Shown here: positions 3,784 through 59,152 of the stretch, piece by piece
How positions within the stretch are numbered: position 1 is the first letter of the stretch
Layout: each line of letters opens with the position of its first letter
Origin: Sulfurospirillaceae bacterium
GTDB taxonomy: Bacteria > Campylobacterota > Campylobacteria > Campylobacterales > Sulfurospirillaceae
Reading direction: 5' to 3'
NCBI GenBank assembly: GCA_028684065.1
Contig: JAQUGO010000007.1
Span: forward strand, 39,507 to 103,506
Length of the DNA stretch: 64,000 bases
Position numbers and translations under genes: made by a program
Notes under the pieces: generated by a model
What the model saw: only the letters and a program-made list of their open reading frames with translations
What the model was told of the DNA's origin: nothing
The model's database searches: none

Positions 3784-6700
3784 ATGGGGGTATTTATGAG
3801 CAATAATTCAAAAATATTTAGACTTTTTATATCTTCGACATTTAAAGACTTTCAATTAGAAAGAGAAACCTTACAAACAAAAGTTTTTCCAGAGATAAAA
3901 GAATATTGTTCCTCAAAAGGCTATACATTTCAGCCTATAGATTTAAGATGGGGAGTAAGTGCTGAAGCTCAAATAGATCAAAAAGCTTTAGAGATGTGCA
4001 TCAAAGAGGTTCAGTCTTGTAAAAAACATAGCTACCCAAATTTCTTGATAATGCTTGGAGATAGGTATGGATGGGTCCCATTACCTAATATTATTGAAGC
4101 AAGTGAATTTGAGCTTATTTTAAAAAATGTAAAAGTTGAAGATAAAGAATTATTATTATATTGGTACTATGAAGACAAGAATCAACTACCTCCTTCATTT
4201 ATACTAAAACAGCTACCTCCTTCATTTATACTAAAACAGGGCACAAGGAAATATATTGATGATTATAAATGGGCAGCAGCCGAATCAAATTTAAGAAGAA
4301 TACTTCAAAATGCAATAGAAAATTTAGATGATACACTAAGAGCAAAATTCATAACATCTGCTACTGAATCAGAAGCTATAGAGGGGATTGTCTCTTATTT
4401 TAAAAAAACAGAATACCAAAAACAACTATTACACCTGATTCCAGAACTTGAGCAATTAGATCACAAACATATATTTGGATTTTTTAGAGATATTGATACA
4501 AATAGCATTATTGAAGATCAGTTTGTATCAGATGATTACTATAAAGCTCAAGAATTTAAAGATAAAGTCAAAAAACAGCTTGTAAGTGAAAATATTTTAC
4601 ATGTAACTACATCTCAAGTCTTAAAAGATAAGTTGGATGAAAAATATCTTGATGAGTTTACTGAATCAATTTTAAATTTTTTAAAATTACAAGTTGATCA
4701 ACAGATAAAAAAAGATGAAGAAAAAGACTATACAAGTTTAGAATTAGAAAAACAGCAACAACACAACTATCTCAATCAAAAGCTTGAAAACTTTTTAGGA
4801 CAACAAAAGGCACTAGAAGAGATTCGAGATTATATCAGTAATGAAGATGACAAACCGCTTATAATATGTGGCGAGTCAGGTATAGGAAAGTCATCCATCA
4901 TGGCTAAAACTATAGAGGATACTTCTAATACCTTTAGTAAAAAAATTATCTATAGATTTATAGGAGCTACGCCAAACTCTACAACCACAAAAGACCTTTT
5001 AACTTCTATTTTAGAAGAATTAAATATCACTTTAGAAGATGAAAAACTAGATACTATTGAAAATCAATTTTTAACAGATATAGATAAAGAAGAAAATAGT
5101 TTTGTAGAATTATCGAATAAAGTTTATGAAGAAATTATGAATATAACAGATGATATCGTGATATTCGTAGATGCAGTTGATCAGTTGTATAATGATGATC
5201 AGTTTTTATGGCTTCCTAGTCAATTACCATCAAATATTAAAATAGTTATATCAGTATTAAAAGATAGAAATTATAAAGAAGACAGCAAGTACTTTTACAC
5301 ACTAGAAGATAAGATTTCAAAATTTATAGAAATAGAACCATTTAATAAACCAATTGAGCTACTAGAGTTATTACTATTGCAACAAAATAGAACTCTGCAA
5401 GATGCTCAAAAAGAATACTTTTTAAAACAATACAATAAAGTTAATACCCCTCTATATGTATATATAGCTGCAAATCAAATGTTATATTGGACAAGCCATG
5501 ATTTGGTCGATACTAATGTTTCATTGAGTTTTACTCAAAAAGATATAGTAAAAAAATTTATTGAAAATCTAACATCCTTACATCATCATGATAGGAGATT
5601 AGTTAAAAAAGTCTTTGGATATATTTTAGCTTCAAAAGATGGACTTAGTGAGTATGAAATATTGGAGTTATTAAATACAAATAAAAAGTTTGTAAAAACT
5701 ATTGCACCAGATACTAGACATACAAATACTACGCAAGAACTTCCTTTAGTGATATGGACACGACTCTATGGTCATATCAAACCATTTTTAAGTAGAAAGA
5801 AACAAGATGGGCAAGAACTGTTATACTTTTTTCATAGAGAATTTATAGATATTATAGAAAATCAACCAAATCAACAAAAAGAACATAAAAATATTATAGA
5901 GGCCACTCAAAAACTTATAAAAAAGAATCAAGATAAAGAGTTTAATAGTAACAGGTGGGGAAAATTATATGCCAATTTACTGGTAGAATATTTTTTAAAA
6001 TATGATAAAAACGATATAATAAAAAAGTTTTGTAAAATATTAAATAATATTAATAATGACTTCTGGCTAATTAGCTTCATTGAGTTTTTTCAACAGATGG
6101 GATGGAGACTAAATACGCTTAATAAATTTAATGAGGCTTTAGGTCATAGAAAATTAATTAATCTAATTCTTGAAAATTTATACAATAAATCTTCAAAATG
6201 GTTATATCTATACACGCAATCCTCTCATAATGTTGCTAGTACCTTATATCGACTAAACCAAACGATAGAAGCAATAGAAATTGAAGAAAAAAATATAAAT
6301 ATAATTGAAAATATTTCAGATTATGATAGTTTAAATAGTATAGAATTTATGAAATATCTAAATCATCATTCCCTTAAAGAAGCCAAAAATAGTGTTGATA
6401 TTAAAGGAATAGCATCATTAATGTGGACCGATTCTTACTTAAAAATTTTAAGTGTGCTATCTTCTTGTTATAGTAAGAGAAATCAACTTGATAAAGCTAT
6501 AGAGCTAGATAAAAAAAGTTGTAATATTGCTGAGATTTTTTATAATGCACCTAACAATAATGGTAAGTTTTTTATTAAGCATTATTTAACTGCGTTAAAT
6601 AACTTATCTGAGTCTCATTACAAAAATAATGAAATCAATGATGCTATTTCTTTACAAAAAAAAGCATTAAATATTGTAGAACAAGAACATGATTTATATA

Positions 6701-12653: not shown

Positions 12654-12656
12654 AGG

Positions 12657-13265: not shown

Positions 13266-13362
13266 CTGCTTCCTTTTTTACATGTAAAGAGGTGCATTCC
13301 CTCTGCAGACCTTCTGTACTCTCACCATCTTGCCATACGCAAAATAGAGCATGTATTCCTCC

Positions 13363-14070: not shown

Positions 14071-14073
14071 TGT

Positions 14074-19269: not shown

Positions 19270-22200
19270 TTAATTTATTTTAGCAGCCAATAATTCCAAA
19301 TACATCTCCACCAAGGATTCATCCTTCAATGCATTGGCTGCTATTTCTAACACTTCCCAACCAAGCAACTTTGCTTTTGTGCGTTTGATTTTGTCTTTTT
19401 CAGCTTGAACAGGATTTCCATGGTAGCGCGTTGAAAGTCCATCGATGTATATCAATACTTTTTTGTCAATGTATGCGAAATCAGCAATGGTTGTTTCATT
19501 GCCTCGTAATTCAATTTCATGTTGTTGTGTCGGCTCAGGAAAATTATTTTTACGCAAAATATCCAAAAAAGCTTCTTCTGCTGGGCTATCTGTTTTATTT
19601 TCAGATTTTTTTGGAACTGCATTGTTTGGTATCATCATTTTTTCAATTGGGGCTTTTTTGTAGTTCTCTAAAAGATTGATAGCTTCAATGCGATTTAGAA
19701 CATTGTGATACTGTTGGTTGCTATAATTTAAAAGACACTTGTAGCACACATCTTCACAATCACATGCATTCAATTTGGCTATAGCTTTTTCAACGATAAT
19801 TGGTAAATTATCTAAAAAGAGTGAGAGATATCCACTCCCCCCTGGTAATGAATCGTAAAAGACCACATTGAATTGTCCATTATCTTTCGATTCAACGACG
19901 CCATCAATATCAAATTCTCTTATATCCAATATCTCAATGGCACCAAGTTTTAAAGACTCTAAAAAATTAGCAGCAATACTTGCAGATGCAAAGCCTTCAA
20001 AGATAATCAAATCAGATTCTAAATCAGTGTGTAAAGCATTCCAAAAGAACTTTGTATCACCAATAAAACAACGCTTTTTATGCTCTTCCATGAAATTAGC
20101 AATTTCAGCTTCACTAGCTTTTGGATGTCTTACAGAACCGCATGATGGGCAGATTAAAAATCCTAACTCTTTTTGACCATACATCCCTAGGTTTATGAGT
20201 CTTACATTGCCATTTTTGAGGTATTTTATTTTTGTTTTACCAATTTCATAGAGTGTTCCACCAAAATGTTTATCTAAAATGAGTGAACCAGTTTTAAAAC
20301 CAACTCTGACCCGTGACTCTCTAAGGTCATCTATCTTTTGAACTTTGTTTAAAACGATATCTACCATAGGAAAAGAAAAAAAGTTTTGGTACTCTTTATC
20401 GCCACCGTCATAGTCTCTGGTAAAGTTTTCCAAAATGGCGCCACTACTCGTTTCTAAAATCATATCTTTTCGGATATCTTCACTACTAAAGTTGACCTCT
20501 TTCTCTTTGATTTTTGCGAAATTGAGCCGTGTGATTTCAAAGATATTTTTATTGGCATAGACTTTATTTGCAGGAGTAAGTTCTCTTATGGCTATGGTGT
20601 TGGCTCTTGAAATTTCAAACAAAGGTTCAACACAAACAGCTCTCACACTCTCTCTGCCAAGGGCATAGCTTGGGAAAAAACCATCTTTGGCAAGGTAACT
20701 TAGTGTGTAGTTGTCTTGTTTATCACTAAGGTACCCTTCTAATGCCCTGTTATAAGCATTAAATTCTCTCTGTTCTGCTTTGTTTAAGACCTCTTTTTGA
20801 CGATAGGGAGCAAGAACACTTCGATATGTTTTTATCTCCAACATCAGTTCATCAAGATGCTTTTTTAAATCACTCGATACTTCTTTTGTAGCGCTCTTTA
20901 AAAACTCTTCATTGATGCTTTCTTTGTCTTCAAGTGTCCAGTGGTCAAAAAATATTTTTTTGATATCGCTGTAGATAGATTCGAAATTATCTTCTATTAT
21001 TTTTGCTAAAGCTTTAAAATCATCAACTTTTTCTTTAAACCCTGCATTTCCTATATCATCGTTGTAAGAGATATAACGAGAAATATATGTTGGAAAGGTC
21101 TCTTTGAGCAATGCTTCATCTTTGATATGGCTACGGAGCCATGTCAATATCGCAGAGTGAACATGTTTTCTCACAAGATTTTGGTTTGACATACTAAAGG
21201 TTGGTATGCGAATATTACCTGTTATCATCTCAGCAGGATTTTCAAAGAAATAGCTATCGTGTGATGCATTTTTACAGTAAGTGAACACTGTAGCTATGCG
21301 ATGCTTACGCCCTGCTCGACCTACTCTTTGTGTATAGTTTGGCGTTGATGGTGGCACATTTTTGAGTAAAACCATCTCAAGTTTACCAATATCCACACCC
21401 ATTTCGAGTGTTGGTGTTGCAACCAAAGCGTTACATGTACCATCAACTTTTTTAAACTCTTTTTCGATTTCTTCGCGCTTCTCTTTTCCAACTTGTGCGG
21501 AGTGTTCTTCTGGCTTTATAGGAGAATATTTTAGGCTTGTATACTGGAAAACATCGTAATTTTCTTTATCTAAAGGCTTATAAGTGACTTTACCTTTACA
21601 GTTGTATGTTGGGCAAGATAATGTCGGCAAAGCATGCATATAGACTTTTTTACAAACTTGACATTCGTAAGAGCCTTGAGTATGTTGAAAGCCAATTTTG
21701 TCTTTATTAAGTTGGTAAATTCGTTGTGCATTAAACAATGATGTTGTTTCGCCGTTGTAACCTTTATAGACCAAATCTACATTAACCAACAAATTGGTAT
21801 CAATTGCAAAATCCCATAATTTATCTAAAAATATATTGATATGCTGTGTGTGAATGACTGATTTTTTTAGCATCTCTTGTACGGAACTTCGACCATTTTT
21901 TGATTTGATAGCATGAATATAATTCGGAGCTTTTTCGTCACTGCTACTGGCTAAAAAAATGGCATGAGGGAAAGTATCTTTCATAAAAGGAATAATGCCA
22001 TCACGGACTTCTAGGTCTTTTTCATTCCATTTTCTTTTTGCTAATTCATCGCTTACAGCGCCTCGTTTTCGGATGAAATCTAAGATATTGTGAATGATAG
22101 CTTTGAGTTCATCCATAGAATTAAGCCCTAAGATATCAACATACTCCTCAAAGTCACTCAATTCGCTGTTAGAGATGCCATCGTATAAGACACTGACCAT

Positions 22201-25741: not shown

Positions 25742-28700
25742 AACAACCCACCTTGTGATAGTTTGGCTTTAGGTTTTGCGGTTTTTTTGTTCCATAGTCC
25801 TGCTTTGACTTCGGCTTCGTAGCGTTCGGTGTTGAGTTTGTAGAGGCGTCGCAGGATTTCTAGCCTTGCTTTTTCGCTGATGGTGTAGCGAACTCTATCG
25901 TTTACTGGGAGGTAAGGTACTTCGTAGAAGTCGTGGGCTAAGTCTAGGTCGCTCCATCCATACGCCTCTTTGACGGTTTCGTTGATGTTGTGGTGAAATT
26001 CTCGTAAGGTTTTAAATGCTTCGCGTGTCTCTTTTGGGGTATGAAAGGCATTGTAAAGTTTGGTCAAACCGATGTTGTGCTCTTTTATCATCGTACTTCT
26101 TAACGCATGATACTCCTTGCCTAGTTTTTCAAGTTTTTGTACTAAAGGATGTGAAAAATCACATAAAGTAGGATTGGCTGGGAAAAGCTCTGGGAATGGG
26201 AAAGTTTCAAAACAATCAGATGGAGTATATCTAAGCCCAGTACCCAGAGAAGAACCATTTTTTCTTGCCCATTCATCATGAATAGTTGATTGCAAAAGAC
26301 TAAAATATGAAATATTTGTATATCCACAAACACCCAAAGCATGAGTAAATACACATTCGAAATCTACTATTGAAACTATCCAATGTTTTGCATTTAATCC
26401 AAACGATAGAACTCTCTCCATCGGCTCTTTTGGATACTCAAAATCACTCGGATGCTTCTCAAAACTTGCCCCTCGTCCGATAGCGTGGTAAAGCGCTGGT
26501 GTCTTTTCTGCAAACTGCCACCATCTTTCTCTTCTCTCTTTTCGATTAAGTTTATCCCTTTCAGGTTTCACTCGTTCTACCACTTGTTCTAACAACTCAG
26601 GATATTCTCCCGCTTTTTCCAAACTCCAATCCCAAAAATTAATCACATAACGGCTTGGCTCTTGTGTAGGTGAGCTATTGAGGTCATCACCATTAATATA
26701 GGGGAAAAGTGCTTTGCTGTAGTGAGGCTTTACATGTAAAATATTTTCTGCTTCTTCTGGAGTCATAGTAAAACCCATACCCAAAACATAACTTCCAATA
26801 AAAGAGCAACTTTCATTGGCTTTGAGGGTATTTGGCTTTTTATCATCCTCAGCAGATAAAAATGGACTGATAAACTCTACTTCTACAGCACTCAGTATCT
26901 TTTGTTTATTGATTTGCCCTTTGCAAAAGTGCACACGACTGGTGACGACAGTAGCTTGTCCCTCCCATGGTTCATTGGGAAATGCAGCGTAAATCATGCC
27001 TTTGTCCACCATTTGTGCAAGTCCAACTTCTCTGGTGTCACCCTCGGCGATAGTGTTGGTGGCTAAAAGCCCAAAGGTTCCTTTCGGTTTTAGTAACTGC
27101 AAGGCTCGTAAAAAGAAATACGCCACCAAGTCAGCGCTACCTCTTTGTCCATGCCCTAAGTATTTAACCAAGTATTCACGGTAAGGTTCGCCAAAAAAGC
27201 CTGTCAGTTTTTGTCCACCTAAAAACGGTGGATTTCCCACAATGGCATCAAAACCACCATTGTCTAGCATGACTTCGGGGAATTCTAAGAGATAACTAAA
27301 AGGCTCAAAATCCCCTGATGGGTCGATGGCATTGGCACTTAAAAAGGCTAATTTTTCTTTGGTGCTTTGAAGCAAGGCATCACTTTTAGCAAGCAGTTCT
27401 TTTTTCTTTTCTACTTCTAGGTCACTGAGCCTTTCAACTTCTTTACGAAATTCGATGGCTTTGTCTAGGTCTTTTTTATTGAGCACATTAAAGAGGCTGC
27501 TTTGGTTGTTGAATAGTTTTTTGACTTCGCTTTCATGGATGACACCCACCAGTGAGTCCCCGTGTTTGAAGGCATGGTCGATGAAAGTGAACGGCAGGCT
27601 TTTATCGAGTGTTTCAAGCCAGATGGATATCTTGGCGATTTCCACCGCAAGGGGGTTGATATCGACGCCGTAGATGCACTCTTTGGCTACAAAGCGTTTG
27701 GCATAGCGTTTTTGCTCATCATATTCTTTTGGGATTGGTAAAGACGCTGAAGAAGTACAAGGCAGTGCGTAAGGAATACACAACGACTCTTCGGTGGCGT
27801 TGAGTGCTTGTTGCCACGCTTCCACCAAACGCTCACTCATATAACGAATCGTTTGGACTAAAAAGGCACCGCTTCCCATAGCGATGTCGGCTATCTTTAA
27901 CGAGAGGATTTCTTTGGCGGATTTGAGTGTGCCTTGTTCATCGTAAAGATGTGGGTCAAGCGTGGTTTTAACCATCTTGGCAGTTAGGGCTTCTGGTGTG
28001 TAATGTGCACCTGTGGCGCGTCGCTTGGTGGATGTTGAGAGGTATAAGCTAAAGGATGGAACCACCTCATGAATTAAAGTGGCATATGGTGTTAGCATCT
28101 CTTGGTAGGTTTGCTCAAGCACTGTAAGCTTTTGTGTCACTTCTTCATCTGGGGCAAAGCGATTTTCTAGCTGTTTGGTGGTTGGTGCTTTGTTTTGTTG
28201 GGTATTGTTTTTGATGAATTCACCCAGCTTTTCATCGCTTACATGTAAGAGTTCATCGGCTTTTATGGCGTATTCGTTACCTTTGGGTGCAAACTTGATG
28301 AGTGGCGTTTGACCGCTTCTATCGACACTGTAGGCTAGTAAACCCTCATAGATATAGCCGATATGCTCGACATTGAGTGAGTGATAACTAAAACTTTGCG
28401 TGATGGTCTCTTTGCCGATTTTCCCTTCAGCATGGGTGAGAAGCCATAGGATTTCATAGATCTCTTCATTTTTAGGCTCGAAGCGTTCATCAAAAAGCAA
28501 TGGAAATTTTTCTGGAGCAAATATCTCTCCGCCATAACGAGGACTTAACATATCGGGGTGGTTGGAGCCATAGTAGATGATGTTAAAAAGTGCTACAATC
28601 TGCTGGTAGGCATCGCTTCTATAAGCTAACTCTTCCGAGGCTTTTTGCTCGTTGAGAAGGCTCATAAGCGTATGAAGCCCGTAGGCTTTGTCATATAAAA

Positions 28701-34904: not shown

Positions 34905-35819
34905 TTAAATATCTGATTTTGTGTAGTTAGCGATATTTTCGAAAATTTTTTCATGAATAAAAAGAGGCGAGATGACTTTAATATAGGGCAAATACTGTTG
35001 AATCGTAGGGATAATTTCCATTTCATCGGTAATCCAAATATCAAGTTGGTCATAAGTTTCGTCATGCTTTGTTATATGTTGTGAGGCTGAGAGTGGCTGT
35101 CGTTTAAAATATTTGCTAACCTGCTTGTGTACTAAAAGTTTTACAGGAATCAGCTCGGCATCTTTAAAATATGCGTTTATTGCGTTATCAAGATGTCCGA
35201 TGACTCTATTTTCGGGGATGGTGAAAGTTTCATCTTGCAAAGAGAGTACTTCTAAACTTTTGAGATGGTATGTTCGAACTTCTTTATTATCGGTGTCCCA
35301 TAGAAACAAGTACCAAAATCCCTCCAAAAGTACAATTTTTAAAGGATAAACGGTTCTATCTTTGTCTTTATATCTACATGTAAGCACTTTATTTTGAGAG
35401 ATAGCTGTTTTGACGATTGCAAGTTTTCCTTCATCGTCTTTTTCAATTTTTTCAATTTTTGTTTTTTTATAAATAGTCAATGAGGCTCTGCGTTTAAAAC
35501 GATTAAAAAGCCTTTGAGTAGAGAGCAAAAACTGTTTTCCATAACTATTTGCATGGTGTTCAAGCACCCTCATGGTGATTAATTCGTCTTCACTTGATAG
35601 TGTTTCATCCAGGAAGCCTCTTTTGGCTATCCATTTTTGAATACTTTTATCGAATCGTATCTCTGCTATTTCTATAGGTACTAAGTATTTTTTGATATTG
35701 TCTTGAATAGTTTTTTCAGGTATGGCGTATTGTTTGCTGATGGTTGGTATGTGTATTGGTTGCCCATTTGATAATTGTCGCAGTAATTTTGGTAAAAGAT
35801 CGATAATCGTTTGATTCAC
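34905..35819 (-). CDS. WYL-domain transcriptional regulator (HTH-WYL-WCX; CapW/BrxR-like)
   Basis: VYPLKIVLLEGFWYLFLWD is the WYL motif. N-terminal HTH-like region. GTG start overlaps the DUF2779 stop (GTGA). Confidence 0.7.
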   Translation of the reverse strand: MNQTIIDLLPKLLRQLSNGQPIHIPTISKQYAIPEKTIQDNIKKYLVPIEIAEIRFDKSIQKWIAKRGFLDETLSSEDELITMRVLEHHANSYGKQFLLSTQRLFNRFKRRASLTIYKKTKIEKIEKDDEGKLAIVKTAISQNKVLTCRYKDKDRTVYPLKIVLLEGFWYLFLWDTDNKEVRTYHLKSLEVLSLQDETFTIPENRVIGHLDNAINAYFKDAELIPVKLLVHKQVSKYFKRQPLSASQHITKHDETYDQLDIWITDEMEIIPTIQQYLPYIKVISPLFIHEKIFENIANYTKSDI

Positions 35820-37300
35820 GATGTAACCTCTTTCAATTTTTCAAGTACCTTCACCATCGCTAAAGTATCGAGTTCACAATACTTCAACAACTGCTCTCGC
35901 ACTTTCATTTGCTCTGCAAAATTCTTTACATGTAAAGATGCAAAGGCGTTCATAGCATCGCCACCGTTTTGGATGCCCTCAAGTTTTTTATAGGACAATT
36001 CCATCTCAGGTACGAGTGCAGGAAGGACATATTTGATGGAGTAACTGCCTTGCATGCTTGGGGTGACATAGTGTCCTTTTTGAAAAGGAAGCATTAAATC
36101 TTTGATGGTGTCATGTAGGTGCATAAGCTTAGTTGACAAGTCTGGAAACAGCTGGGCAAGTGAGGCGATAACGCCTTTTTCAAAGCTCATATTGTATGTC
36201 AAAATGTTTACATGTAAAGGTATGTCTTTGACCAGTTTTTCAGCTAAAGCTCGTCTTGGGTCAACTCCTGCTTCTGCTAAAAATGCTTTATGCTCTAAAG
36301 TGCCATCACGGTGTTCTACATGTAAAGAGTATTGAAACGGTATTTGTTTGTAAGGACTGACACCGCTCCACAAAGGAATGGCTTGTTGAAAGGTCTCAAA
36401 GTCGAGATGATAGATGGGATAGGTGAGTGTTTCTAAAAACTCAGCGATTGCCTGATGGTCAATGAATGTGTGTTGCTTTTTCCAGTTATCGACCTTTTGC
36501 CATTGGATGGTAGTCATCGCAAAGTCTTCGGGTATAGCTTCGATAGCCACGATGTTTTGCGCATAAAGCTCTTGTTGTTTTTTACTGCCAAGATTGAAGA
36601 TATTGAAGATGCTGTACTCAGGGATATTTCGCTGAACTTTCCAACAATACGCCTTTGCATCACACTCATACGGGTCATTGCACTGTTTGCCAATGTCGAT
36701 GTTTGGCTCATGGACTTTATCGTTCAGATACGCCTCAAACGCTTCAAGTCTCGCAGGAATTGCGCCTTGCAAATCTCGCACTTCACCTGTGACATCGACC
36801 ACCACAAAAAGCTTTTCAAGCTCCAACGCTTCTTCTCGTACATAGCCTGAGTTGATATGCACCACATGACACGCCCCAACCCTAAACCCAAGGGCCTCTA
36901 AAACATACAGCTGAATGGAAACATCATGCAGATAGATAGGCTTTACATCGGTGGAACTCTTCACTTCATAAAGCTCTAAGCCAAGAGGTGTTTGGCACAA
37001 GATGTCCACCATCACTACGATGCCTTCAAAGATAAATGTCGCCTCGTAGATGTTCTCCATACCCTCATCAAGATACGCTTGAGTCAGCCTCGCCATGCTT
37101 TTAAAATCTTGTGCATCAAAAGGTATTTCACGCCCATCAGGAAACAATTTACACGCCAAATCCCCCACGATGTTACCCGTCTCAAACTTTGCTTTGGCAC
37201 TGGCATCTGGTGGGGTTAAAACCTCTGGCTTGCATTTTTTAAGCCAGAGGGATTTTGGACATTGAATGGCTCGGGTGTAGAGGGATTTTGAGAGGGTCAT
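35816..37300 (-). CDS. DUF2779 protein (Cas4/RecB-like PD-(D/E)xK N-terminal half with Cys cluster; DFET-containing C-terminal half)
   Basis: N-terminus MTLSKSLYTRAIQCPKSLWLKK is typical of DUF2779. Cys cluster CNDPYECDAKAYCW. YHLDFETFQQAIP in the second half. The ATG at 37300 is preferred over the track's TTG at 37309. Confidence 0.65.
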   Translation of the reverse strand: MTLSKSLYTRAIQCPKSLWLKKCKPEVLTPPDASAKAKFETGNIVGDLACKLFPDGREIPFDAQDFKSMARLTQAYLDEGMENIYEATFIFEGIVVMVDILCQTPLGLELYEVKSSTDVKPIYLHDVSIQLYVLEALGFRVGACHVVHINSGYVREEALELEKLFVVVDVTGEVRDLQGAIPARLEAFEAYLNDKVHEPNIDIGKQCNDPYECDAKAYCWKVQRNIPEYSIFNIFNLGSKKQQELYAQNIVAIEAIPEDFAMTTIQWQKVDNWKKQHTFIDHQAIAEFLETLTYPIYHLDFETFQQAIPLWSGVSPYKQIPFQYSLHVEHRDGTLEHKAFLAEAGVDPRRALAEKLVKDIPLHVNILTYNMSFEKGVIASLAQLFPDLSTKLMHLHDTIKDLMLPFQKGHYVTPSMQGSYSIKYVLPALVPEMELSYKKLEGIQNGGDAMNAFASLHVKNFAEQMKVREQLLKYCELDTLAMVKVLEKLKEVTS

Positions 37301-41602: not shown

Positions 41603-43957
41603 TCACAACTCCACAACTCTTTCAAACATCTCTTTAATCTCCATCTCATGAGAAATTAAAAATATCTGTCTATAAGATTCACTAATCGTATGAAACGCTT
41701 CCATAATGCGGATGCGTCTCTCCTCATCTTGACTTCCGAAGACTTCATCGAAGGCTAAAAATCCTACGTTTCCTCCACCGCTAAGTTCTCCTAGTGTTTT
41801 GGAGATGGCGATGCGAAGCACTAAGTTAGCGAGGTCTATTTCACCTCCGCTAAAGCGTTCTATGGGGTATTTGATACCGTTGTCGTAGATGAAGAAGTCA
41901 AACTCTGGGCTGACTTCTATGTGTTGGTAACGACCTCTGGTAATGCGTACGAACATCTCACTGGCTACTTCACCAATGCGTGGTGCTACTCTTGCGTTGA
42001 TATGCGTTTTAAACTCCGCCATAATCTCTTTTAGCTTCACATAATCACTTTGGTCTTTCTCTTTGGCTTTGAGTGCCTCTCGTAGTTTGGCATCACGCTC
42101 GATATCTTTTTTGAGTGCTTCGATGTCACGAACGATATTGGACTGCTCAAGGGCGGTTTTATGCATCAGTTCAGTATGTGCTTCTTTTTGTTTTTCAATA
42201 CGTGTAGTTTCTTCTATAGCTTTGGTGTGTATTTCTTCTTTGTAAGTATCCGCACTGAGAAGATTTTGATACTCTTTAAGCTGTACTTGATCAGTTTCTA
42301 ATTGCTTTTGAAGTGCACTCAAGGCAGTTGTTTTTGAAGGTATAGTGGCGATAAGTGCTTCGAGCTTGAGCAGTTCATCGACTTGAGCTTTGAGGGTTTT
42401 ATGCTCCGCTTTTAAGTGCTCATGAGCTTTTTCATCATAAGTGATGATGCCTAATGCTTCTAGGGCTTGTTTATTTGCTTTACCTCTGATTTCTACTTCA
42501 TTAAAAAGTGTTTGTGCTTTGGCAAGGTCTTGAGTTTTACTGGTAAGTAAGGTTATTTGCGTGTTGGTTGCGTTATAAATCCGCTCTGCTTCTTGAACAA
42601 TTTTCTGCTGTGCTTTGTGTAGTTCTACTTTTACATGTAAAGATTTTGTGGCTTCGTCTATCTGTTTGGAGATGACCTCGTTTATATCTTTGGTTAAAGA
42701 GGAGAGGACATTGTCGTATTGATCCAGCAGTGGTCTGGTACATACAGGACATGCCGAATCACGACCTAGTTTTGTGATGCCATCAACTTTATCTTTGGTT
42801 TCGACTATCTTTGCATTTTGGGTTGCGATATGAGTTTTAATCGCATTCATCGCCTCTTCAATACTTTGTAATGTTGCTTTTTGTTGCGTAAGGGTTGTGT
42901 GCTGTTCAGCGAACTGTTTTTTGAGCGTTTCAAGAGGTTCTATCTCTTTGGAAAGTGTTGCAACTTCTGCTTTACGACTGGTAAATTCAATGCGAAGTTG
43001 CACTTGTTCTTTTTCTAAGGCATCTTTTTTAAAGTATGCTGTTCTGAAATTGTCTTGTTCATTTAGAGATTTATCAAATGTAACTAGTTTGGCTTTGAGC
43101 GGGAGCTCTTTTTCATAGGCGGTTTTCTTTACATGTAAGGCTTTGAGTTCTTCGTCAAGATTTTTAAGTTGTTGCTGATGAATGGTGATACCTTGCTCTG
43201 CTTTGGTCACAGTTTGAGCTTTTTGAGTTTTGGCTTCTTTGGCTTTTTGCTGAAGCTCAACGGCTGTTTTCGCACTCTCATGGGTAAGTTTGATTTTTTG
43301 ACTTTCAGCTTCAAAGGTTTTAAATTGTGCTACTAAAGTTTTAAGTGTTTCCTCTTTTGAAACTTGCTTTACATGTAAAGCTTTAAGAGCCTCTTCGCTC
43401 ATAAGTTGAGTTGAGTCGTTTTTTATATCACGGTTAAGATCACGCAATACTTCACGGATCATAGCTTCAATCTTATCTATCTTCTCCAGTCCTAAAAGAC
43501 GGCGCATCATAGTTTTACGCTCATCATTTTTCATGGAACTAAGAGCTGTGAGTTCTTTTTGAGACGCAAAAACAGTGTGTAAGAAAGCTTCTTTTCCCAT
43601 GCCAAGTAGTTTATTGATAGCGATGGTGACTTCTTTCGCACCTGTTGTGGTTGTTTCTTCGCCACATTTTAATGAAGCATATGCGGTCATCACACGGCCA
43701 CGAAACTCACGGATGCTGGTGTACTCTTTTTCGTTGATATAAAAGCAAAGTTCTACTTTGACATTACCTTCCGCACCTGAGGTTTTCAAGAGTTCTTTAT
43801 TTTTATACTCACCATACAAGGCGAAAAAGACTGCTTCAAAGATAGTGGACTTTCCACTGCCATTACGTCCTAAGATGCCACAAAGTCCTTCTTCAAAAGT
43901 CATCTCGAATGAGGGGTAACGCTTAAAGTTTTGAAGAGAGAGTGTTTTAAGCGTCAT
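41603..43957 (-). CDS. sbcC: SbcC/Rad50-like ATPase
   Basis: Walker A ILGRNGSGKSTIFEAV, a long coiled coil with zinc hook CPVC, signature FSGGEIDL, and Walker B LAFDEVFGSQD. Confidence 0.8.
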   Translation of the reverse strand: MTLKTLSLQNFKRYPSFEMTFEEGLCGILGRNGSGKSTIFEAVFFALYGEYKNKELLKTSGAEGNVKVELCFYINEKEYTSIREFRGRVMTAYASLKCGEETTTTGAKEVTIAINKLLGMGKEAFLHTVFASQKELTALSSMKNDERKTMMRRLLGLEKIDKIEAMIREVLRDLNRDIKNDSTQLMSEEALKALHVKQVSKEETLKTLVAQFKTFEAESQKIKLTHESAKTAVELQQKAKEAKTQKAQTVTKAEQGITIHQQQLKNLDEELKALHVKKTAYEKELPLKAKLVTFDKSLNEQDNFRTAYFKKDALEKEQVQLRIEFTSRKAEVATLSKEIEPLETLKKQFAEQHTTLTQQKATLQSIEEAMNAIKTHIATQNAKIVETKDKVDGITKLGRDSACPVCTRPLLDQYDNVLSSLTKDINEVISKQIDEATKSLHVKVELHKAQQKIVQEAERIYNATNTQITLLTSKTQDLAKAQTLFNEVEIRGKANKQALEALGIITYDEKAHEHLKAEHKTLKAQVDELLKLEALIATIPSKTTALSALQKQLETDQVQLKEYQNLLSADTYKEEIHTKAIEETTRIEKQKEAHTELMHKTALEQSNIVRDIEALKKDIERDAKLREALKAKEKDQSDYVKLKEIMAEFKTHINARVAPRIGEVASEMFVRITRGRYQHIEVSPEFDFFIYDNGIKYPIERFSGGEIDLANLVLRIAISKTLGELSGGGNVGFLAFDEVFGSQDEERRIRIMEAFHTISESYRQIFLISHEMEIKEMFERVVEL
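43366..43381. repeat. 16-nt perfect palindrome GCTTTACATGTAAAGC (longest instance of the iterated TTACATGTAA motif)
   Basis: Read directly from the sequence. See the finding on the iterated palindrome. Confidence 0.95.
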
Positions 43958-45065
43958 CGTTTACCTCGTCATACTGTGCAAATAGCTCAGTGACTTTAGC
44001 ATTTAGGCGTTCAAACTCATTTTCATCTCCACTTTGCTCTTTGAGGAAAGAGCTAAAATACTCTTGCAAAGAAGCAGCATTGACTGATTCTGAACTTATA
44101 GAGCTTTGAGTTTGAGCAAATTTGCGTTGTATCTGAACACTAAGTGCTTCAGGGAAAATTCCTTCTATATCACCATTGGCGATGTCGATAGACTGCGTAA
44201 TGGTTAGATTTTCAAGAGTGATGTAAAGAAGTGCTCCTTTGGTAACATCGGCATATTCCTCAAGCTGGAAAATGACATCTTTGGTTGCATCAATATTGAG
44301 TCGATAACTTGGGCGTAATGCGATGGTTTGAAGGTTTACATGTAAAGCTTCATCAAGTTCAACACATGCATAGCCTTTATCAATACGAATATCATTGCTA
44401 CTGGTACGCTCAGTTGATCCTGCATAGTAAACATTTGGGTGTTTGCCAACTTTGCCAAAGCCATGCCAATGCCCTAAGGCGACATAATCCATTTTAGAAA
44501 ATAGTGATTCTTTATCGTGAGGATAGACACGCTCACCATACTCTTCCATAATATACTTTTGCCCAACGGAGCAGTGAAGCATCATAATGTTTCGTTTGCC
44601 CTCAACTAAGGAGTTTTCACAAAGCTCTATGGCTTTAAGATTTTCCATTTCATCGTTAATGTGTGGAATACAATGAAAAACAACATCCTCAAATTCCACC
44701 TTTTCATAGGCTTCTTCAAAAACAGGATAGACATAGTCTAATGTGCGAAGAGCTAAAAGTATAGGTGAAGCAGTGCGTGTGCGAGGTGTTGAGTGATTTC
44801 CTGCGATAATGATGGTTTTTATCTGTGCTGAACTTAGGCGTTTAAGTTGTGTAAGAGCGAAACTAATAGCGCGGTTTGATGGGTGAGGACGGTGAAAAAG
44901 ATCACCCGTGTGAATGACATAGTTAGGTTTATCCAAAAGAATAGCATCAATGACTTGTGTAAATGCATCGTAAAAGTCAGCCTCTCGCTGATTGATACCT
45001 GCTTCATTAATGGCGTCTAAATCGTTAAAGCCTAAATGCGTATCCGAAAAATGAATCAATCTCAC
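43947..45065 (-). CDS. sbcD: SbcD/Mre11-like nuclease
   Basis: Motifs HFSDTHLG, HTGDLFH, GNHS and LGHWH. It overlaps the sbcC start by 11 nt. Confidence 0.85.
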   Translation of the reverse strand: MRLIHFSDTHLGFNDLDAINEAGINQREADFYDAFTQVIDAILLDKPNYVIHTGDLFHRPHPSNRAISFALTQLKRLSSAQIKTIIIAGNHSTPRTRTASPILLALRTLDYVYPVFEEAYEKVEFEDVVFHCIPHINDEMENLKAIELCENSLVEGKRNIMMLHCSVGQKYIMEEYGERVYPHDKESLFSKMDYVALGHWHGFGKVGKHPNVYYAGSTERTSSNDIRIDKGYACVELDEALHVNLQTIALRPSYRLNIDATKDVIFQLEEYADVTKGALLYITLENLTITQSIDIANGDIEGIFPEALSVQIQRKFAQTQSSISSESVNAASLQEYFSSFLKEQSGDENEFERLNAKVTELFAQYDEVNDDA

Positions 45066-49335: not shown

Positions 49336-49344
49336 CTTTTAACC

Positions 49345-50106: not shown

Positions 50107-50107
50107 A

Positions 50108-50443: not shown

Positions 50444-50444
50444 T

Positions 50445-51161: not shown

Positions 51162-51183
51162 TATGATCTCTTTAAAATATTTT

Positions 51184-51550: not shown

Positions 51551-51629
51551 TTTGTTCCTTTATATTTAAATTATTAACGCTATATTAACATTATATTTAA
51601 CAAATGTCAATAAAAATAACAATATTAAT

Positions 51630-51726
51630 ATAGATAATGTAAATAAAAATATTAATTAAGTAATGAAAAATAACTTTATCAAGTTGTTTTAAATGAGTAT
51701 TTAATATTTTTATTTACATTATCTAT
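51630..51726. promoter_or_regulatory. perfect 26-nt inverted repeat (51630..51655 / 51701..51726) in the divergent region between the Xis-type and cI-like genes
   Basis: ATAGATAATGTAAATAAAAATATTAA and its exact reverse complement are separated by 45 nt. Confidence 0.8.
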
Positions 51727-51768
51727 GTAATATGATAAAATATCTTTTAAAATTAACAAAGGGTTTAA

Positions 51769-53995: not shown

Positions 53996-54568
53996 TTATT
54001 TTACAACTATAAGTTTTTTCATAACGATTTGTTTAGGTAGAAAATTCCAGCAATAATAACTACTTGAGAATGTAATCTTATTGTTTTCAAGCCCATCAGC
54101 CATTACAAAACGCATTCTTTTGTCAAACATTAGTAGTTGCAAATCCTTTTTATCAAAAAGCTGTTTTGGGGCACTATCATTAAGCCATGTATTACTCATA
54201 ATAAGTGCAAAGGGCTTATTAAAACTTAAAGCTCTTTCAAATATCTTACGTTTATTTGTAAAGGGTGGATTACTGATAATTATGTCCCATTTTCTTGGCT
54301 CATAGGTAAAAAAATCTTTATTTTCATTGATATGACTGTGTATAACTTTATTTTTATATGATATTTGTTTGACAAACTCACTTTGTTTTGTATCAAAAGG
54401 GCACCATACAATGGCATCTTTGGGTATAAACTCCAAAATAGCTTCAACGGCATATCCAGGCGTATAACATTCATCATTATTGCCAGAGGAGTATAATACT
54501 TCTTTACTATTGATTTTAAATTCTTCAGACTCATTTATTTTGATTATTGGTTTAGTGTGAGCTGGCAT
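53996..54568 (-). CDS. small N6-adenine methyltransferase-like protein (NPPF motif), no adjacent nuclease
   Basis: DIIISNPPFTNK, with an upstream ECYTPGYAV...VWCPFD arrangement that resembles phage Dam-type MTases. Confidence 0.55.
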   Translation of the reverse strand: MPAHTKPIIKINESEEFKINSKEVLYSSGNNDECYTPGYAVEAILEFIPKDAIVWCPFDTKQSEFVKQISYKNKVIHSHINENKDFFTYEPRKWDIIISNPPFTNKRKIFERALSFNKPFALIMSNTWLNDSAPKQLFDKKDLQLLMFDKRMRFVMADGLENNKITFSSSYYCWNFLPKQIVMKKLIVVK

Positions 54569-54635: not shown

Positions 54636-56009
54636 ATGTCATTATATCTTTTTTTAATTTATTCGAAAATGTCAAGAGACAATTTTAAGCAAACTTTATC
54701 CCAAACTTTCGTTATACTCCCCTCTATGAAAAATTTCACTTTACATTCACATTATGATGTCATTATAATTGGTTCTGGTCCTGCTGGACTAGGTGCCGCA
54801 TTTAAAATCGCTGAAAACTCAAATTTATCACTCTTGTTAGTTGAAAAAAAGAAAATTAGCTCTGGCGGTTTGCGGAATGACTGTAAACAAAACTATACTT
54901 TCCCTGTTGGATTTCCTTATGAACATTGGGATAAAAAAAGTGCAGAACCTTTACTCAGAGAAGTTGCTGAACATCTAAATCCCAAAATCGAATCAAGAGT
55001 TAATGTTGAGAAGTATATCAAACGTGCAGAAAAAATTGGTGTTGAAATTCTTGCTATTGACCAATCACACGTTGGCACCGATAAATCCTCCGAACTTATT
55101 CGTAGTTTACTAGAAAAATTAGAAGCCTTACATGTCAACATTGCATTACAAACAGAAGTTAAAGAGTTATCGGAAAAAGCTAAAGAGTTATCGTTAGAAA
55201 ATGGTCAAGTTATCACCTTTAATCATCTTATAGTAGCACCAGGACGTGCCGATTATGATTGGCTTCAAGAACAAATGAATAGGCTTGGTGTGAGTTATTG
55301 TGATAATATTGTGGATATCGGTGTTCGCATTGAAACGAAAGAGGAAAACTACCCTATTGTTCGTGACTATTATGATCCTAAAATCCTTTTTCCTAATAAA
55401 GTGAGAACCTTTTGTACCAACTCTGGATGTGCTCATATTGTTCGTGAAAAGTATAAAGGCTACTATTCGGTTAATGGACATTCTCTCTCAAAAGAGAATG
55501 AACGCAATGACTTAGTGAACTTTGCAATGCTAAAAACCATACGCTTAACACAACCTGTAGTGAGTGGTCAACAATTTGGAAAAATTTTAGGTGAGATGGT
55601 CATGCAACTGAGCGGTGGTTCTGTCATTATGCAACGTGTAGGTGATTTCAGAATGGGCTCTCGAAGTAAAGAAGAAACCTTCAATAACGATTTATACGAC
55701 TTTGAGCCTACTCTTAAAAGTGCCGTTGCGGGGGATTTGTCTTTATGTATGCCCGCTAAAATTTTACGAGATATTTGGAAAGCACTTAAAATGCTTGATA
55801 CGATTATTCCTGGTGTTTTACATCCATCAACCATTATCTATTATCCTGAAATAAAAACGTACTCTAATAAACCACAATTTATCAATGATCATTTTATGGT
55901 AAAAGAAGGTTATTATATTATCGGCGATGGAGCTGGAACAAGTCGAGGTATTACTGCCGCTTGGGCTTCTGGTATTCGTGCTGCAATCGGGATATTAGAT
56001 AAAAGATAA
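54636..56009 (+). CDS. FAD-dependent oxidoreductase
   Basis: Dinucleotide-binding fold YDVIIIGSGPAGLGAA. The real start is probably internal (ATG at 54726, MKNFTLH). Confidence 0.7.
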   Translation: MSLYLFLIYSKMSRDNFKQTLSQTFVILPSMKNFTLHSHYDVIIIGSGPAGLGAAFKIAENSNLSLLLVEKKKISSGGLRNDCKQNYTFPVGFPYEHWDKKSAEPLLREVAEHLNPKIESRVNVEKYIKRAEKIGVEILAIDQSHVGTDKSSELIRSLLEKLEALHVNIALQTEVKELSEKAKELSLENGQVITFNHLIVAPGRADYDWLQEQMNRLGVSYCDNIVDIGVRIETKEENYPIVRDYYDPKILFPNKVRTFCTNSGCAHIVREKYKGYYSVNGHSLSKENERNDLVNFAMLKTIRLTQPVVSGQQFGKILGEMVMQLSGGSVIMQRVGDFRMGSRSKEETFNNDLYDFEPTLKSAVAGDLSLCMPAKILRDIWKALKMLDTIIPGVLHPSTIIYYPEIKTYSNKPQFINDHFMVKEGYYIIGDGAGTSRGITAAWASGIRAAIGILDKR

Positions 56010-56087
56010 ACACTATTGTAAGACTGTAGCAAAACTTTTGCTATAATCAACATTATTTAATTTACTCTACATGTAAGGAATATTTTA

Positions 56088-57044: not shown

Positions 57045-57878
57045 ATGCAAATTTCTCTTTCACATGATATGCTTGCAATTACACTACAAGAAGATGCTAA
57101 AACATTTTATTTTTTGCAAAATTTAGCCGAGAAAAACTTCCAAAAAAAAATAGGTCGAAAAACAAAAACTATTATATTTAAAGAAGAAGCAGAGCTTGTA
57201 CAACGAAGATACTTTTTAAAACTTGTTAGTAAGATTTACCAGAAAAAAACAAATGATATTGCTGTTTGTAATAAGATTGAAAATGCACTTGATAAAACTA
57301 TTAAGATTTCATTACTTAAGTCAAATCAACTCTTACAACATATTGATATCAAAATGAATATTGAAGATAATTATGCAGTGGTTTTTTCAATAGGAACACA
57401 TCATACATTATTGGCCTCATATCTTAAAAATTATTTTAAAGATCATTTGATACGCTTTAGACCTAAATATCAAACTATTACACTTTACCCAAATTCTGAA
57501 CAAACAGTATGTTTAATTGAAAAACTGCTTTTGCAAAAAGAGCTCCTAGGCTGTTTCGTCCACTTTGACTATAATAAACAAAATTTTATTGACTATAAAA
57601 AAGCACTCAATTCAAAAAAATCTAAACGAAATCACCATCATGCACTTTTTTCTCTATTAGAAGACTATTTTCGTGTTTTAGAGTGTAAAATGGAAGATTC
57701 ATTTGAAACTGTTAGGGGTAATTATCTTAAATTAGTGAAAAAATACCACCCTGATAGTTGTGGTTTAAGCCATGGTGATTTACATGTAATGTATTTAAAA
57801 AAGTTTCAAGAAATTCAATATGCTTATGAAATGATTAAAATGCACTATAAAAATGAATCAGCTTTGAGAATTGCTTAA
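57045..57878 (+). CDS. protein with C-terminal J domain
   Basis: YLKLVKKYHPD contains the HPD motif. Confidence 0.6.
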   Translation: MQISLSHDMLAITLQEDAKTFYFLQNLAEKNFQKKIGRKTKTIIFKEEAELVQRRYFLKLVSKIYQKKTNDIAVCNKIENALDKTIKISLLKSNQLLQHIDIKMNIEDNYAVVFSIGTHHTLLASYLKNYFKDHLIRFRPKYQTITLYPNSEQTVCLIEKLLLQKELLGCFVHFDYNKQNFIDYKKALNSKKSKRNHHHALFSLLEDYFRVLECKMEDSFETVRGNYLKLVKKYHPDSCGLSHGDLHVMYLKKFQEIQYAYEMIKMHYKNESALRIA

Positions 57879-57880
57879 TG

Positions 57881-59152
57881 CTAAAATTGTAATAAATAGA
57901 GTTTTTTCCGCTCAGATGAACTTGCGATATTAAATTGTTGCCTGTATTTCGTAATCGTACGTCTAACCATTTTGATACTAAATTTTTTCTCAATCATCTC
58001 TAAAAGCTTAATATCACTCAGAGGTTTTAATCGATTTTCCGCTTTAACTAATTCTTGCATATACTCTTTAATAGCACTGTTTGAGATATCTTCTTCTAAC
58101 GCTGTCGCAAAAAATTGCTTAAGCGGTATAACGCCACGTGAACATGATAAGTATTTTCCAGCAATAGCTCGTGATATCGTTGAGGGATTGCGTCCTAAAT
58201 CATCTGCTAGATCTTTGAGTTTCATAGGTTTGATAGCTTTACCAAAAAAGAAGTCATACTGGTATTCAACAATCATTAAACCAATTTTATAAAGCGTTGC
58301 TTTACGCATCTCAAGGGCATCAACCAAGTCTTTGGCATCTTTAATTTTTTGGGCAACAAAGGTATGAGACTCATCAACACCATCGGTGTCAATAATAATT
58401 TCAGGATAATACGCATCGTTAAGTTGTACTTCAATCACACCACTTTTATCGTAAACAAAAATATCAGGTATGACCTCTTTTTCATCTTCCAAAAAGTCTA
58501 TGGCTGGGGGATTCCTGAATTTTTTAATAACCATAAGAGCATCATGAAAATAAGGTTCTTTACCAAAAGTTTCAATTGTTTCAAAATTATTAATGAGCGT
58601 TTCAGCAAGAGTATAGACGTCATGACTAAGGTCTAAATCTTGCAATTGAAATAAAAAAGCCTCTTTAAAATCAATGGCACCAATTCCTAAAGGCTCAAGA
58701 AAAGAAAATCGTTGTCTAATTTTTTCTATTTCTTTACATGTAACATTATGTTTAGTTGCAATTTCTTCAACAGCACTATACTCAAAGTAACCCTCAGAAT
58801 TGATATTTTCAATAATGTCATAAGCAATATTTTGTGAATGAACCGTTGGAAAAAGTGGTGGATTGACCTGTTCATGCAGTACTTGAAACAATGATTTTTT
58901 ATCAAAGGTTAATGCTTCAATTGTACTTGAAACAGATTCTTTGGATATTTGTGAAAAAAAACTCTTCTTTTCAAATCTTGCATCGGCTTTTTCGCAGCCC
59001 GATTTAACTTGAATAAAGGGATTTTCTTGAACAAAAGGTTCAAGAGTTTCCACTAAAGAGTCAAGATTAGACTGTAAAATAGGTAGCCAACCTCGCAAGG
59101 TCGATGAAAATTTTTGTTTTGTGGTTTGTGTCCCTGAAACGCGTAATTTCAA
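57881..59152 (-). CDS. rpoN: RNA polymerase sigma-54 factor
   Basis: C-terminal RpoN box RRTITKYR and HTH region STISRAI. TTG start in the track. Confidence 0.9.
   Translation of the reverse strand: MKLRVSGTQTTKQKFSSTLRGWLPILQSNLDSLVETLEPFVQENPFIQVKSGCEKADARFEKKSFFSQISKESVSSTIEALTFDKKSLFQVLHEQVNPPLFPTVHSQNIAYDIIENINSEGYFEYSAVEEIATKHNVTCKEIEKIRQRFSFLEPLGIGAIDFKEAFLFQLQDLDLSHDVYTLAETLINNFETIETFGKEPYFHDALMVIKKFRNPPAIDFLEDEKEVIPDIFVYDKSGVIEVQLNDAYYPEIIIDTDGVDESHTFVAQKIKDAKDLVDALEMRKATLYKIGLMIVEYQYDFFFGKAIKPMKLKDLADDLGRNPSTISRAIAGKYLSCSRGVIPLKQFFATALEEDISNSAIKEYMQELVKAENRLKPLSDIKLLEMIEKKFSIKMVRRTITKYRQQFNIASSSERKKLYLLQF

Follow-up and report, generated by a model that had tools for sequence, protein, structure and literature searches.

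A highly iterated palindromic DNA word in Sulfurospirillum and its near relatives

The word and its copies in the window

The DNA analysed here is a 64-kb window (the whole stretch presented above, from contig JAQUGO010000007.1) of one Sulfurospirillum (Campylobacterota) genome, in which a short palindromic word recurs in seven different genes and in intergenic DNA. We distinguish an 8-bp core (TACATGTA), a 10-mer (TTACATGTAA), a 12-mer (TTTACATGTAAA) and a 14-bp full form (CTTTACATGTAAAG). The window was compared with stretches of relatives of at most 21 kb each, namely 39 loci (L001-L039) retrieved by RpoN, nearly all of them from Sulfurospirillum or Sulfurospirillaceae genomes and metagenome-assembled genomes (MAGs), with a best RpoN identity of 90%. 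The word is over-represented about a hundredfold in this genome and its relatives, and can be described as a highly iterated palindrome that is restricted to Sulfurospirillum and near relatives of this genus.

The exact 10-mer is found 13 times in the window. One copy (4597..4606) lies in a STAND/DUF4062-TPR gene (3784-7641, +), where it encodes the Leu-His-Val (L-H-V) of NILHVTTS, and another, a perfect 12-mer TTTACATGTAAA at 13278..13287, occupies the spacer that separates two minus-strand metallophosphatase genes (12657-13265 and 13363-14070). Three copies fall in the gene of a DISARM-type methylase of the Eco57I/MmeI family (25738-29595, -), at 26730..26739 (perfect 12-mer, ILHVK), 28239..28248 (LLHVS) and 29232..29241 (perfect 12-mer, VLHVK). 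A DUF2779 gene (35816-37309, -) harbours two, one within a perfect 14-mer CTTTACATGTAAAG (35926..35935, SLHVK) and the other a perfect 12-mer (36208..36217, PLHVN) with an orthologous site in contig L161. The sbcC gene (41603-43957, -) also carries three: a perfect 12-mer at 42631..42640 (SLHVK, where relatives have SLQIK or SLNAL), an exact copy at 43129..43138 (ALHVK, ALQ[IL]K in relatives) and an exact copy at 43369-43378 that is part of a 16-nt palindrome, GCTTTACATGTAAAGC, at 43366..43381 (ALHVK, ALQ[TI]E in relatives). Single copies are present in sbcD (43947-45065, -), as a perfect 12-mer at 44336..44345 (ALHVN), in a J-domain gene (57045-57878, +), at the old site 57780..57789 (DLHVM), and in rpoN (57881-59152, -), at 58734..58743. 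The rpoN copy is read in phase 1, as V-T-C-K, and belongs to this species only, in a variable stretch of RpoN.

In addition, several variants deviate from the 10-mer. In the DrmA-like helicase/MZB gene, TTACATGTAC (21431..21440) keeps the core TACATGTA intact and is read in phase 1 (G-T-C-N). The form CTACATGTAA, which has C at ±6, occurs in the WYL-domain gene (35374..35383; phase 1, L-T-C-R), in the DUF2779 gene (36316..36325; SLHVE, again with an orthologous site in L161) and in the intergenic DNA upstream of the arginyl-transferase gene (56067..56076), at the edge of the block of synteny with relatives, where L008 has TACATGTAAAG. A one-mismatch variant, TTACATGTCA, lies in the gene of an FAD-dependent protein (55128..55137; ALHVN, with GTC for Val), and TTACATGTAG lies between trpD and argG (61606..61615), with a perfect TTTACATGTAAA at the orthologous position in L002, L005, L008 and L030. 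A preliminary description of this window had placed 12 of the 13 exact copies correctly, and a single one, given as 13279 and actually at 13278, was wrong by one nucleotide. Its 16-nt palindrome, its host genes (STAND, methylase, DUF2779, sbcC, sbcD, J-domain and rpoN) and its four one-off variants (36316, 55128, 56067 and 61606) were all recovered, the variants at 21431 and 35374 being additional.

Enrichment in the window and in relatives

Expectations for the window were obtained from 100 dinucleotide shuffles and from a second-order Markov model. The 13 exact copies of TTACATGTAA compare with 0.17 expected from the shuffles (none of the 100 reaches 13) and 0.13 expected under the Markov model, and this 10-mer ranks first among the over-represented 10-mers of the window. 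The core TACATGTA is observed 18 times (1.2 expected) and TTTACATGTAAA eight times (0.02 expected). ACATGT itself occurs 28 times for 10-15 expected, but 18 of these 28 occurrences lie inside the word, so that bare ACATGT is at expectation in the window, as had been noticed before.

At least two copies of the word are present in 21 of the 39 loci of relatives (at most 0.06 expected in each), and nine loci have none, among them the Campylobacter locus. Most of the loci show the enrichment independently; in L008, for example, 20 kb hold 10 copies, and stretches of 21 kb hold 9 in Sulfurospirillum sp. SCADC and 7 in S. arcachonense, with about 0.05 copies expected in each. In a pooled set of 23 loci (376 kb), we counted 133 8-mers (5 expected), 95 10-mers (0.64 expected), 47 12-mers (0.15 expected) and 15 14-mers (0.01 expected), counts which are not independent, as orthologous sites are counted in several species. 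The core TACATGTA is the top palindromic 8-mer of the pooled relatives, with an observed/expected ratio (O/E) of 16, compared with 4.5 for the runner-up. One 10-mer is encountered about every 4-5 kb, a density which by extrapolation, rather than by a measured count, corresponds to roughly 500-700 copies per genome.

The preliminary description had considered that O/E might prove to be near 1 genome-wide, or that the copies might lie in a few recently duplicated segments. O/E is far above 1 across about 40 genomes, and the 80-nt flanks of the copies are unrelated, the best pair reaching 42.5% identity, which is within the null range. We therefore rejected duplicated segments or a repeat family as the source of the copies. 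Similarly, repeats of the REP, BIME or MITE type do not fit, as 12 of the 13 copies are inside genes and similarity between copies ends at 14-16 bp, and neither does an oriented word of the Chi or KOPS type, as the word is its own reverse complement.

Reading frame and encoded peptide

Twelve of the 13 copies in the window are genic; 11 of them have the codons TTA-CAT-GTA and the one in rpoN has xTT-ACA-TGT-AAx, in agreement with the phases assigned in the preliminary description. According to codon frequencies, both stop-free phases are equally probable, with 0.057 versus 0.053 copies expected in the window (11:1 observed) and 0.346 versus 0.346 in the pooled set (69:14 observed). The phase bias is thus genuine, and no effect of codon usage. 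Copies are also found in intergenic DNA, in phase 1 and supplying stop codons. About 10% of copies are outside open reading frames (ORFs), a crude figure, since the ORFs of relatives were called from stop to stop with a minimum of 80 aa. In the third frame, ...TAC ATG TAA (Y-M-stop), the word forms the stop codon of one orthologous gene in four species.

Leu-His-Val occurs 143 times for 21.5 expected from amino-acid frequencies, the overall excess being 6-8-fold, and it is 4-14 times commoner than any permutation of the same three residues. It is encoded by TTACATGTA (TTA-CAT-GTA) in 99 of the 143 cases (9.5 expected), and in 63 of 68 cases in the word-rich set. This one of 48 possible codon triples hence accounts for 69-93% of Leu-His-Val instead of the expected 7% or so. 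Relatives poor in the word have Leu-His-Val as often as expected, and never spell it with the word.

Fate of orthologous sites

Among conserved pairs of Leu-His-Val, the exact word is kept in 47-87% of cases, whereas the synonymous-codon background, measured as codon identity at other conserved Leu, His and Val residues, predicts 6-16%. The peptide Leu-His-Val is not retained better than an average tripeptide, and often less well. As one codon triple is used in most cases and as retention of the peptide is at or below background, a favoured peptide Leu-His-Val(-Lys) was rejected as the cause. It is the DNA word, not the peptide, that is maintained, even at the cost of amino-acid changes. Codon bias, retention of the word and copies in spacers, in a second frame and at stop codons all indicate that the force acts on DNA and that protein-level selection is only a filter. 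The preliminary description had already proposed selection on the DNA word filtered by coding constraints, and the codon bias of Leu-His-Val, the retention of the word at orthologous sites and the replacement of peptides all argue for it.

In species without the word, orthologous columns read L-[DE]-V-K, L-H-K-R, L-Y-V-T and similar, or L-Q-[ITL]-K in SbcC. All three SbcC sites fall on an ancestral coiled-coil motif, K-[AS]-L-Q-[ITL]-K, and Sulfuricurvum, Sulfurimonas, Sulfurovum and Hydrogenimonas have no Leu-His-Val at these sites. Some intergenic copies are conserved across species as well, for example those located upstream of argG and of the gene for the arginyl-transferase. The J-domain site (57780) is a perfect 12-mer in L005, L008 and L036 and is decayed in L001, L004, L030 and L031. 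Decay there took place by C-to-T changes at the ACATGT cytosine, on either strand, giving TTTATATGTAAA in L030 and TTTACATATAAG in L001. Deamination of a methylated cytosine in ACATGT was considered and set aside, as there are two such events only and C-to-T one-offs are not enriched in the pooled loci (3 versus 2.35 expected).

The DISARM methylase gene provides another example. Its three word sites are present only in homologues that are at least 88% identical and are absent from homologues at 72% identity, the contigs of which (L162 and L163) have no copy at all in 11-12 kb, while the syntenic L161 (88% identity) has 10 copies of TACATGTA. These alignments show that copies arise in place by point substitutions at near-word sequences such as GCT TTA CAA ATA AAG, through varied changes that include transversions and non-conservative replacements. 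Once made, copies are kept at the DNA level over synonymous drift and amino-acid preference, and the frames and protein sites at which a copy is tolerated are set by selection on the protein. Sites are maintained in close relatives and turn over at depth, with overall density preserved.

Motif anatomy and dialects

The flanks around ACATGT form a 14-bp dyad made of the half-sites CTTTACA and TGTAAAG. The inner 8 bp (TACATGTA) are almost all-or-none and are surrounded by graded positions, T at ±5, T or C at ±6 and C/G at ±7. In the pooled loci, one-off variants pile up at these outer positions (CTTACATGTAAA, n=24; TCTACATGTAAA, n=14), and inner-8 one-offs number 30 for 20.5 expected, beside 95 perfect copies. 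The 10-mer that had been put forward as the unit is indeed over-represented, but the actual unit is a graded 14-mer.

Dialects are apparent: in several species the preferred base at ±6 is C, and the S. cavolei group has a 4.3-fold enrichment of bare ACATGT, in most flanking contexts. The earlier statement that the flanks of ACATGT carry the signal thus holds in the window, while ACATGT alone is enriched in some relatives. L015 (Sulfurospirillum sp. UBA12182, 4.5 kb) has another palindrome, AGATATCT, in seven copies for 0.57 expected. These copies (L015:284-3553) are dispersed, have unrelated flanks and contain GATATC, and no other locus displays such a set. AGATATCT may be an alternate iterated palindrome of one species, as exist among cyanobacteria.

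Distribution within the window and its island modules

Synteny with relatives is limited to about 56-64 kb of the window, and the region 3.8-54.6 kb is a patchwork made up of mobile modules and modules for defence. Of the 13 copies, 10 are located in the 27% of the window with a local G+C content (GC) of at least 0.375 (P = 2e-4), although base composition favours the word in the low-GC part, and copies in these higher-GC modules occur at about one per 1.7 kb. Spacing of the copies in the window is not distinguishable from random (coefficient of variation 1.13, P = 0.18), so that spacing alone does not support clustering. We found no exact copy at 44.4-57.7 kb or in the low-GC cassettes of the window. 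The preliminary description had depicted the same pattern, with copies in core genes and higher-GC modules and with the element backbone and low-GC cassettes free of copies.

One point has to be revised: sbcCD is no imported module but a Sulfurospirillum gene pair of vertical inheritance, as SbcC follows the phylogeny of the genus (identities of 82% with S. cavolei and 62% with Sulfuricurvum). A Sulfurospirillaceae MAG is known to encode an SbcC identical to that of the window. The word-rich modules are congeneric, and low-GC DNA of recent import has no copies. As low-GC cassettes and the phage-like backbone are also without it, the word reports residence time in the lineage.

The modules themselves are varied. 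A class-1 DISARM-like cassette (19270-32551) comprises a DEAD helicase with MZB/DUF1998 (1725 aa), DUF4160, the Eco57I/MmeI-family methylase (1285 aa) and an SNF2 helicase (997 aa), and is syntenic with the ENA contig L161 (88% identity), which also has the DUF2779-WYL pair. At 11775-18360, five paralogous genes of calcineurin-like metallophosphatases surround the gene of a 626-aa protein with a short VirD4/T4SS-DNA-transfer match, an unusual cluster. Further defence modules span 32773-41581, among them an ABC-3C three-component system (37302-41581) and a Cap15-type cyclic-dinucleotide receptor effector (33896-34495), the neighbour of which is a 376-aa gene without annotation. Neither of these two modules carries the word. 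The phage-like backbone (45128-52386) encodes a PIF1-family helicase, a protein with a phage replisome-organiser N-terminal domain and a CI-type repressor, and has no copy of the word.

CATG avoidance, methylation and viral copies

In the pooled loci L001-L039, the tetranucleotide CATG is under-represented (O/E 0.4-0.9) in every context but ACATGT, and in word-poor species within ACATGT as well, which suggests widespread CATG-specific restriction in the clade. Such avoidance is typical of a restriction target, and CATG inside the word would therefore have to be protected, that is methylated, in vivo. The word as a whole is not an avoided restriction target, as it is about 100-fold enriched and as avoidance concerns only CATG in other contexts.

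No candidate methyltransferase, reader or repair protein for the word was identified in the window or in the rpoN loci of relatives. A 190-aa protein encoded at 53996-54568 (-) has adenine-methylase motifs (YTP, NPPF) and a weak Eco57I match. Its homologues show a weak match to the EcoRI-methylase family and number about 4,700 at 75-80% identity or so, some of them being named 'sugar-phosphate nucleotidyltransferase'. This NPPF protein was rejected as a genus-wide reader, as it belongs to a very large and highly conserved family and is found at this locus in this species only. The DISARM methylase was likewise rejected as the cognate methyltransferase, being an island gene.

As regards DNA exchange, a dprA gene is present in the window (1877-2812). 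C. jejuni imports only DNA that is methylated at the palindrome RAATTY (PMC10046745), which occurs about every 60 bp (bioRxiv 10.1101/2024.09.10.611283). In L028 (Campylobacter sp. M4, 21 kb), where the word is not enriched, AAATTT occurs 123 times for 34 expected under a second-order model; GAATTC has no copy there and GAAATTTC five. AAATTT fits RAATTY, the methylated uptake tag of C. jejuni, and no AAATTT excess is seen in Sulfurospirillum loci. In cyanobacteria, the iterated palindrome HIP1 increases transformation, in a way that depends on methylation, and correlates with the DNA-uptake machinery (bioRxiv 10.1101/2024.09.10.611283; 10.64898/2026.06.24.733823). We found nothing in the literature searched on TACATGTA or ACATGT, on highly iterated palindromes in Campylobacterota or on Sulfurospirillum methylomes.

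Viral contigs were scanned with the 14-mer, and most matches are single, consistent with chance. Two contigs (L113 and L120, GC 0.33) have copies embedded in coding sequence (PLHVG, FTCKG and others), at one per 1.7-2.6 kb, in homologous genes. They are probably phages or prophages of word-bearing hosts, the word accumulating in viral DNA too. In seven other viral contigs (L060, L064, L066, L079, L109, L112 and L123, GC 0.40-0.49), an 18-bp palindrome, AACTTTACATGTAAAGTT, is paired at a distance of about 142 bp on either side of an AT-rich spacer, and is conserved while its surroundings diverge. This pair looks like the operators of a phage regulator and unrelated to the genomic word. Neither these pairs nor the coding-embedded copies help to decide between the explanations considered below. 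Finally, in L062 (340-560; viral, GC 0.29), five word copies are found in 180 bp of non-coding DNA, among TTGACA boxes and CTTTACA half-sites, an array that is promoter-, operator- or iteron-like.

Likeness to known systems

Descriptively, the word is a highly iterated palindrome, as it displays every testable feature by which these are defined. HIP1 (GCGATCGC) and the word are both short perfect palindromes, over-represented 15-300 times or more, in unrelated genes and spacers (PMC4390886, PMC5861425). Both show a reading-frame bias and conservation of orthologous sites above background, both are lineage-wide, with exceptions and alternate words, and both have a nested 4-, 6- and 8-bp architecture with typical methyltransferase targets and with deviations at the outer positions. 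Unlike HIP1, the word is AT-rich, occurs in Campylobacterota and carries information out to 14 bp, and its density is about one per 4-5 kb, compared with up to one per gene for HIP1. HIP1 is GCGATCGC, methylated by the orphan methylases DmtA and DmtC (GATC and CGATCG), and the word described here, being different, is not HIP1 proper. HIP1 is known or reported to be methylated, to recur periodically along the chromosome and to affect transformation.

The uptake signal sequences (USS) of Pasteurellaceae and the DNA uptake sequences (DUS) of Neisseriaceae resemble the word in several respects: they are hyper-abundant 9-12-mers located mostly in genes, with a frame bias and an imprint on the proteome, they sit preferentially at poorly conserved protein positions, they have lineage dialects and they are scarce in recently imported DNA. 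Their accumulation is best explained by drive and not by a benefit at each site. They differ from the word in being asymmetric, often arranged as inverted pairs in terminators, and present at about one per kb, whereas the word is a perfect palindrome of which 4-5 kb hold about one copy. Enrichment extends to one-off variants in the case of USS and not in that of the word, and for USS and DUS an uptake specificity and a receptor have been demonstrated.

RAATTY of C. jejuni, with its orphan methylase CtsM, and the word are palindromes of sister families of one order. RAATTY is a self mark that admits DNA to the transformation pathway (PMC10046745). As a degenerate 6-mer it is frequent without accumulation, while the word is rare by composition and must be built up.

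The sites of parS/ParB, Noc, SlmA and KorB are also contiguous dyads of 12-16 bp, often in genes and far above chance. These sets comprise about 10-80 sites per genome, in regional chromosome patterns. In contrast to the Noc, SlmA and ParB sets, the word is about ten times denser, its sites turn over and its imprint is proteome-wide.

Possible function of the word

The reading that we favour, with a probability of about 40%, is that the word would be a tag of self or kin DNA, probably methylated, read as a duplex by a symmetric protein and acting in DNA exchange, e.g. in natural transformation. The perfect dyad, the strict 6-8-bp core (CATG in ACATGT) and the graded flanks point to a protein of two-fold symmetry, which would recognise the word as duplex DNA. 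The likeliest reader would be an enzyme of the methyltransferase type with ACATGT or CATG as its target, and a second protein would read the marked site. Tagged DNA would then be favoured at uptake or at recombination after uptake, and copies would spread by molecular drive, without a benefit of each site to the organism. Both HIP1 of cyanobacteria and the methylated RAATTY of the neighbouring Campylobacteraceae are at present viewed in this way. As has been argued for uptake sequences, drive is easier to accept than a benefit per site, because hundreds of sites each cost an amino-acid change. A more specific version, in which methylation of the 14-bp palindrome would let Sulfurospirillum recognise kin DNA in natural transformation, with tags that differ in dialect between species, we hold to be rather doubtful.

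Several observations weigh against such a tag. Unlike the word, classical uptake sequences lack symmetry, and their density is about 4-5 times as high; moreover, 14 bp of information exceeds what a methyltransferase usually reads. Inner-core one-offs are not enriched, unlike those of USS, which fits strong maintenance of sites or an enzyme-like specificity better than a soft uptake bias. The copies in the viral contigs L113 and L120 are equally well explained by any process acting on resident DNA. To this should be added the failure to identify a reader, methyltransferase or repair protein in the loci searched, and the non-independence of the pooled counts. We also found no literature report of natural transformability or competence in Sulfurospirillum.

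Less probable than the kin tag, but ahead of the other alternatives, is a biased repair linked to methylation that would make and keep the word without any role in uptake: a conserved methyltransferase would mark ACATGT or CATG, and repair of the mismatch or very-short-patch type would favour the word. This is reportedly Elhai's model for HIP1. It is confronted with the variety of substitutions needed to create sites, which include transversions (GAT to CAT, AAA to GTA) and for which an enzyme of the one-mismatch type would be insufficient, as well as with the absence of an identified repair or methyltransferase gene. Campylobacterota are, to our knowledge, generally without MutS1 and MutL, which also counts against it. 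On the other hand, the nesting of CATG, ACATGT and TACATGTA parallels that of GATC, CGATCG and GCGATCGC, perfect copies are sharply maintained with few one-offs, and biased repair would also accommodate the enrichment of bare ACATGT in the S. cavolei group, the alternate palindrome of L015 and the word copies in viral contigs. Deviations sit at the outer positions, as has been reported for HIP1 (PMC4390886). For HIP1 itself, however, analysis of conservation favoured selection over replenishment by biased repair (PMC5861425).

Somewhat less probable still, the word could be the set of binding sites of a dimeric helix-turn-helix protein that organises the chromosome or acts in nucleoid occlusion (of the ParB/Noc/KorB or SlmA kind), with selection on density or pattern. 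A contiguous 14-bp dyad with graded flanks would suit such a protein, and its layout, xTTTxxx followed by xxxAAAx, presumably resembles parS, the Noc-binding site and the KorB operator, a likeness that we take as a lead only. Sites conserved at orthologous positions, both intergenic and genic, would suit it too, and proteins able to read the palindrome do exist, as in unrelated viral contigs its 14-18-bp form is used as a paired site resembling an operator. A role in nucleoid structure has also been proposed for HIP1 (PMC5861425). The 500-700 sites per genome obtained by extrapolation nevertheless exceed the known sets of Noc, SlmA or MatP sites about tenfold, positions are not kept from one species to another, 10 of the 13 copies in the window cluster in a few higher-GC modules, and no candidate protein was found. 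In addition, the benefit of each site would hardly seem to outweigh the cost of non-conservative replacements, which hundreds of sites would entail.

The last alternative would make the pattern a side effect of base composition, of codon usage, of a preferred peptide (Leu-His-Val-Lys) or of duplicated or mobile repeats. It could invoke the AT-richness that the word shares with the genome, the single tripeptide encoded by most copies and the similar coiled-coil peptides around the three sbcC copies, but is refuted by the 13 copies for 0.13-0.17 expected (0.06 per phase from codon frequencies), by the use of one of 48 codon triples in 69-93% of Leu-His-Val, by retention of the word where synonymous sites are otherwise saturated, by copies that are intergenic, in another frame or at stop codons and have unrelated flanks, and by the low-GC parts, which are compositionally favourable and hold the fewest copies.

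Significance

HIP1 has been an open problem for thirty years, in essentially one phylum, and an independent counterpart in Campylobacterota, itself AT-rich, would allow co-varying genes and methylation to be compared. Campylobacter, where a methylated palindrome gates DNA uptake, is neighbouring biology. If the word is a kin tag for transformation, it would be the first uptake signal of the highly iterated palindrome type outside cyanobacteria, and would join HIP1 and the RAATTY of C. jejuni in one principle, in which palindromic methyl-marks gate DNA exchange and reshape proteomes by drive.

The word distorts the proteins of its carriers, as seen from the 6-8-fold excess of Leu-His-Val and from replacements of Gln, Asp or Glu by His. 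It also marks the age of segments within the genus, with defence-island modules that carry it being congeneric and low-GC cassettes without it being recent imports. Finally, the word could be added to constructs, toward genetic tractability of Sulfurospirillum, a genus that includes organohalide-respiring species.

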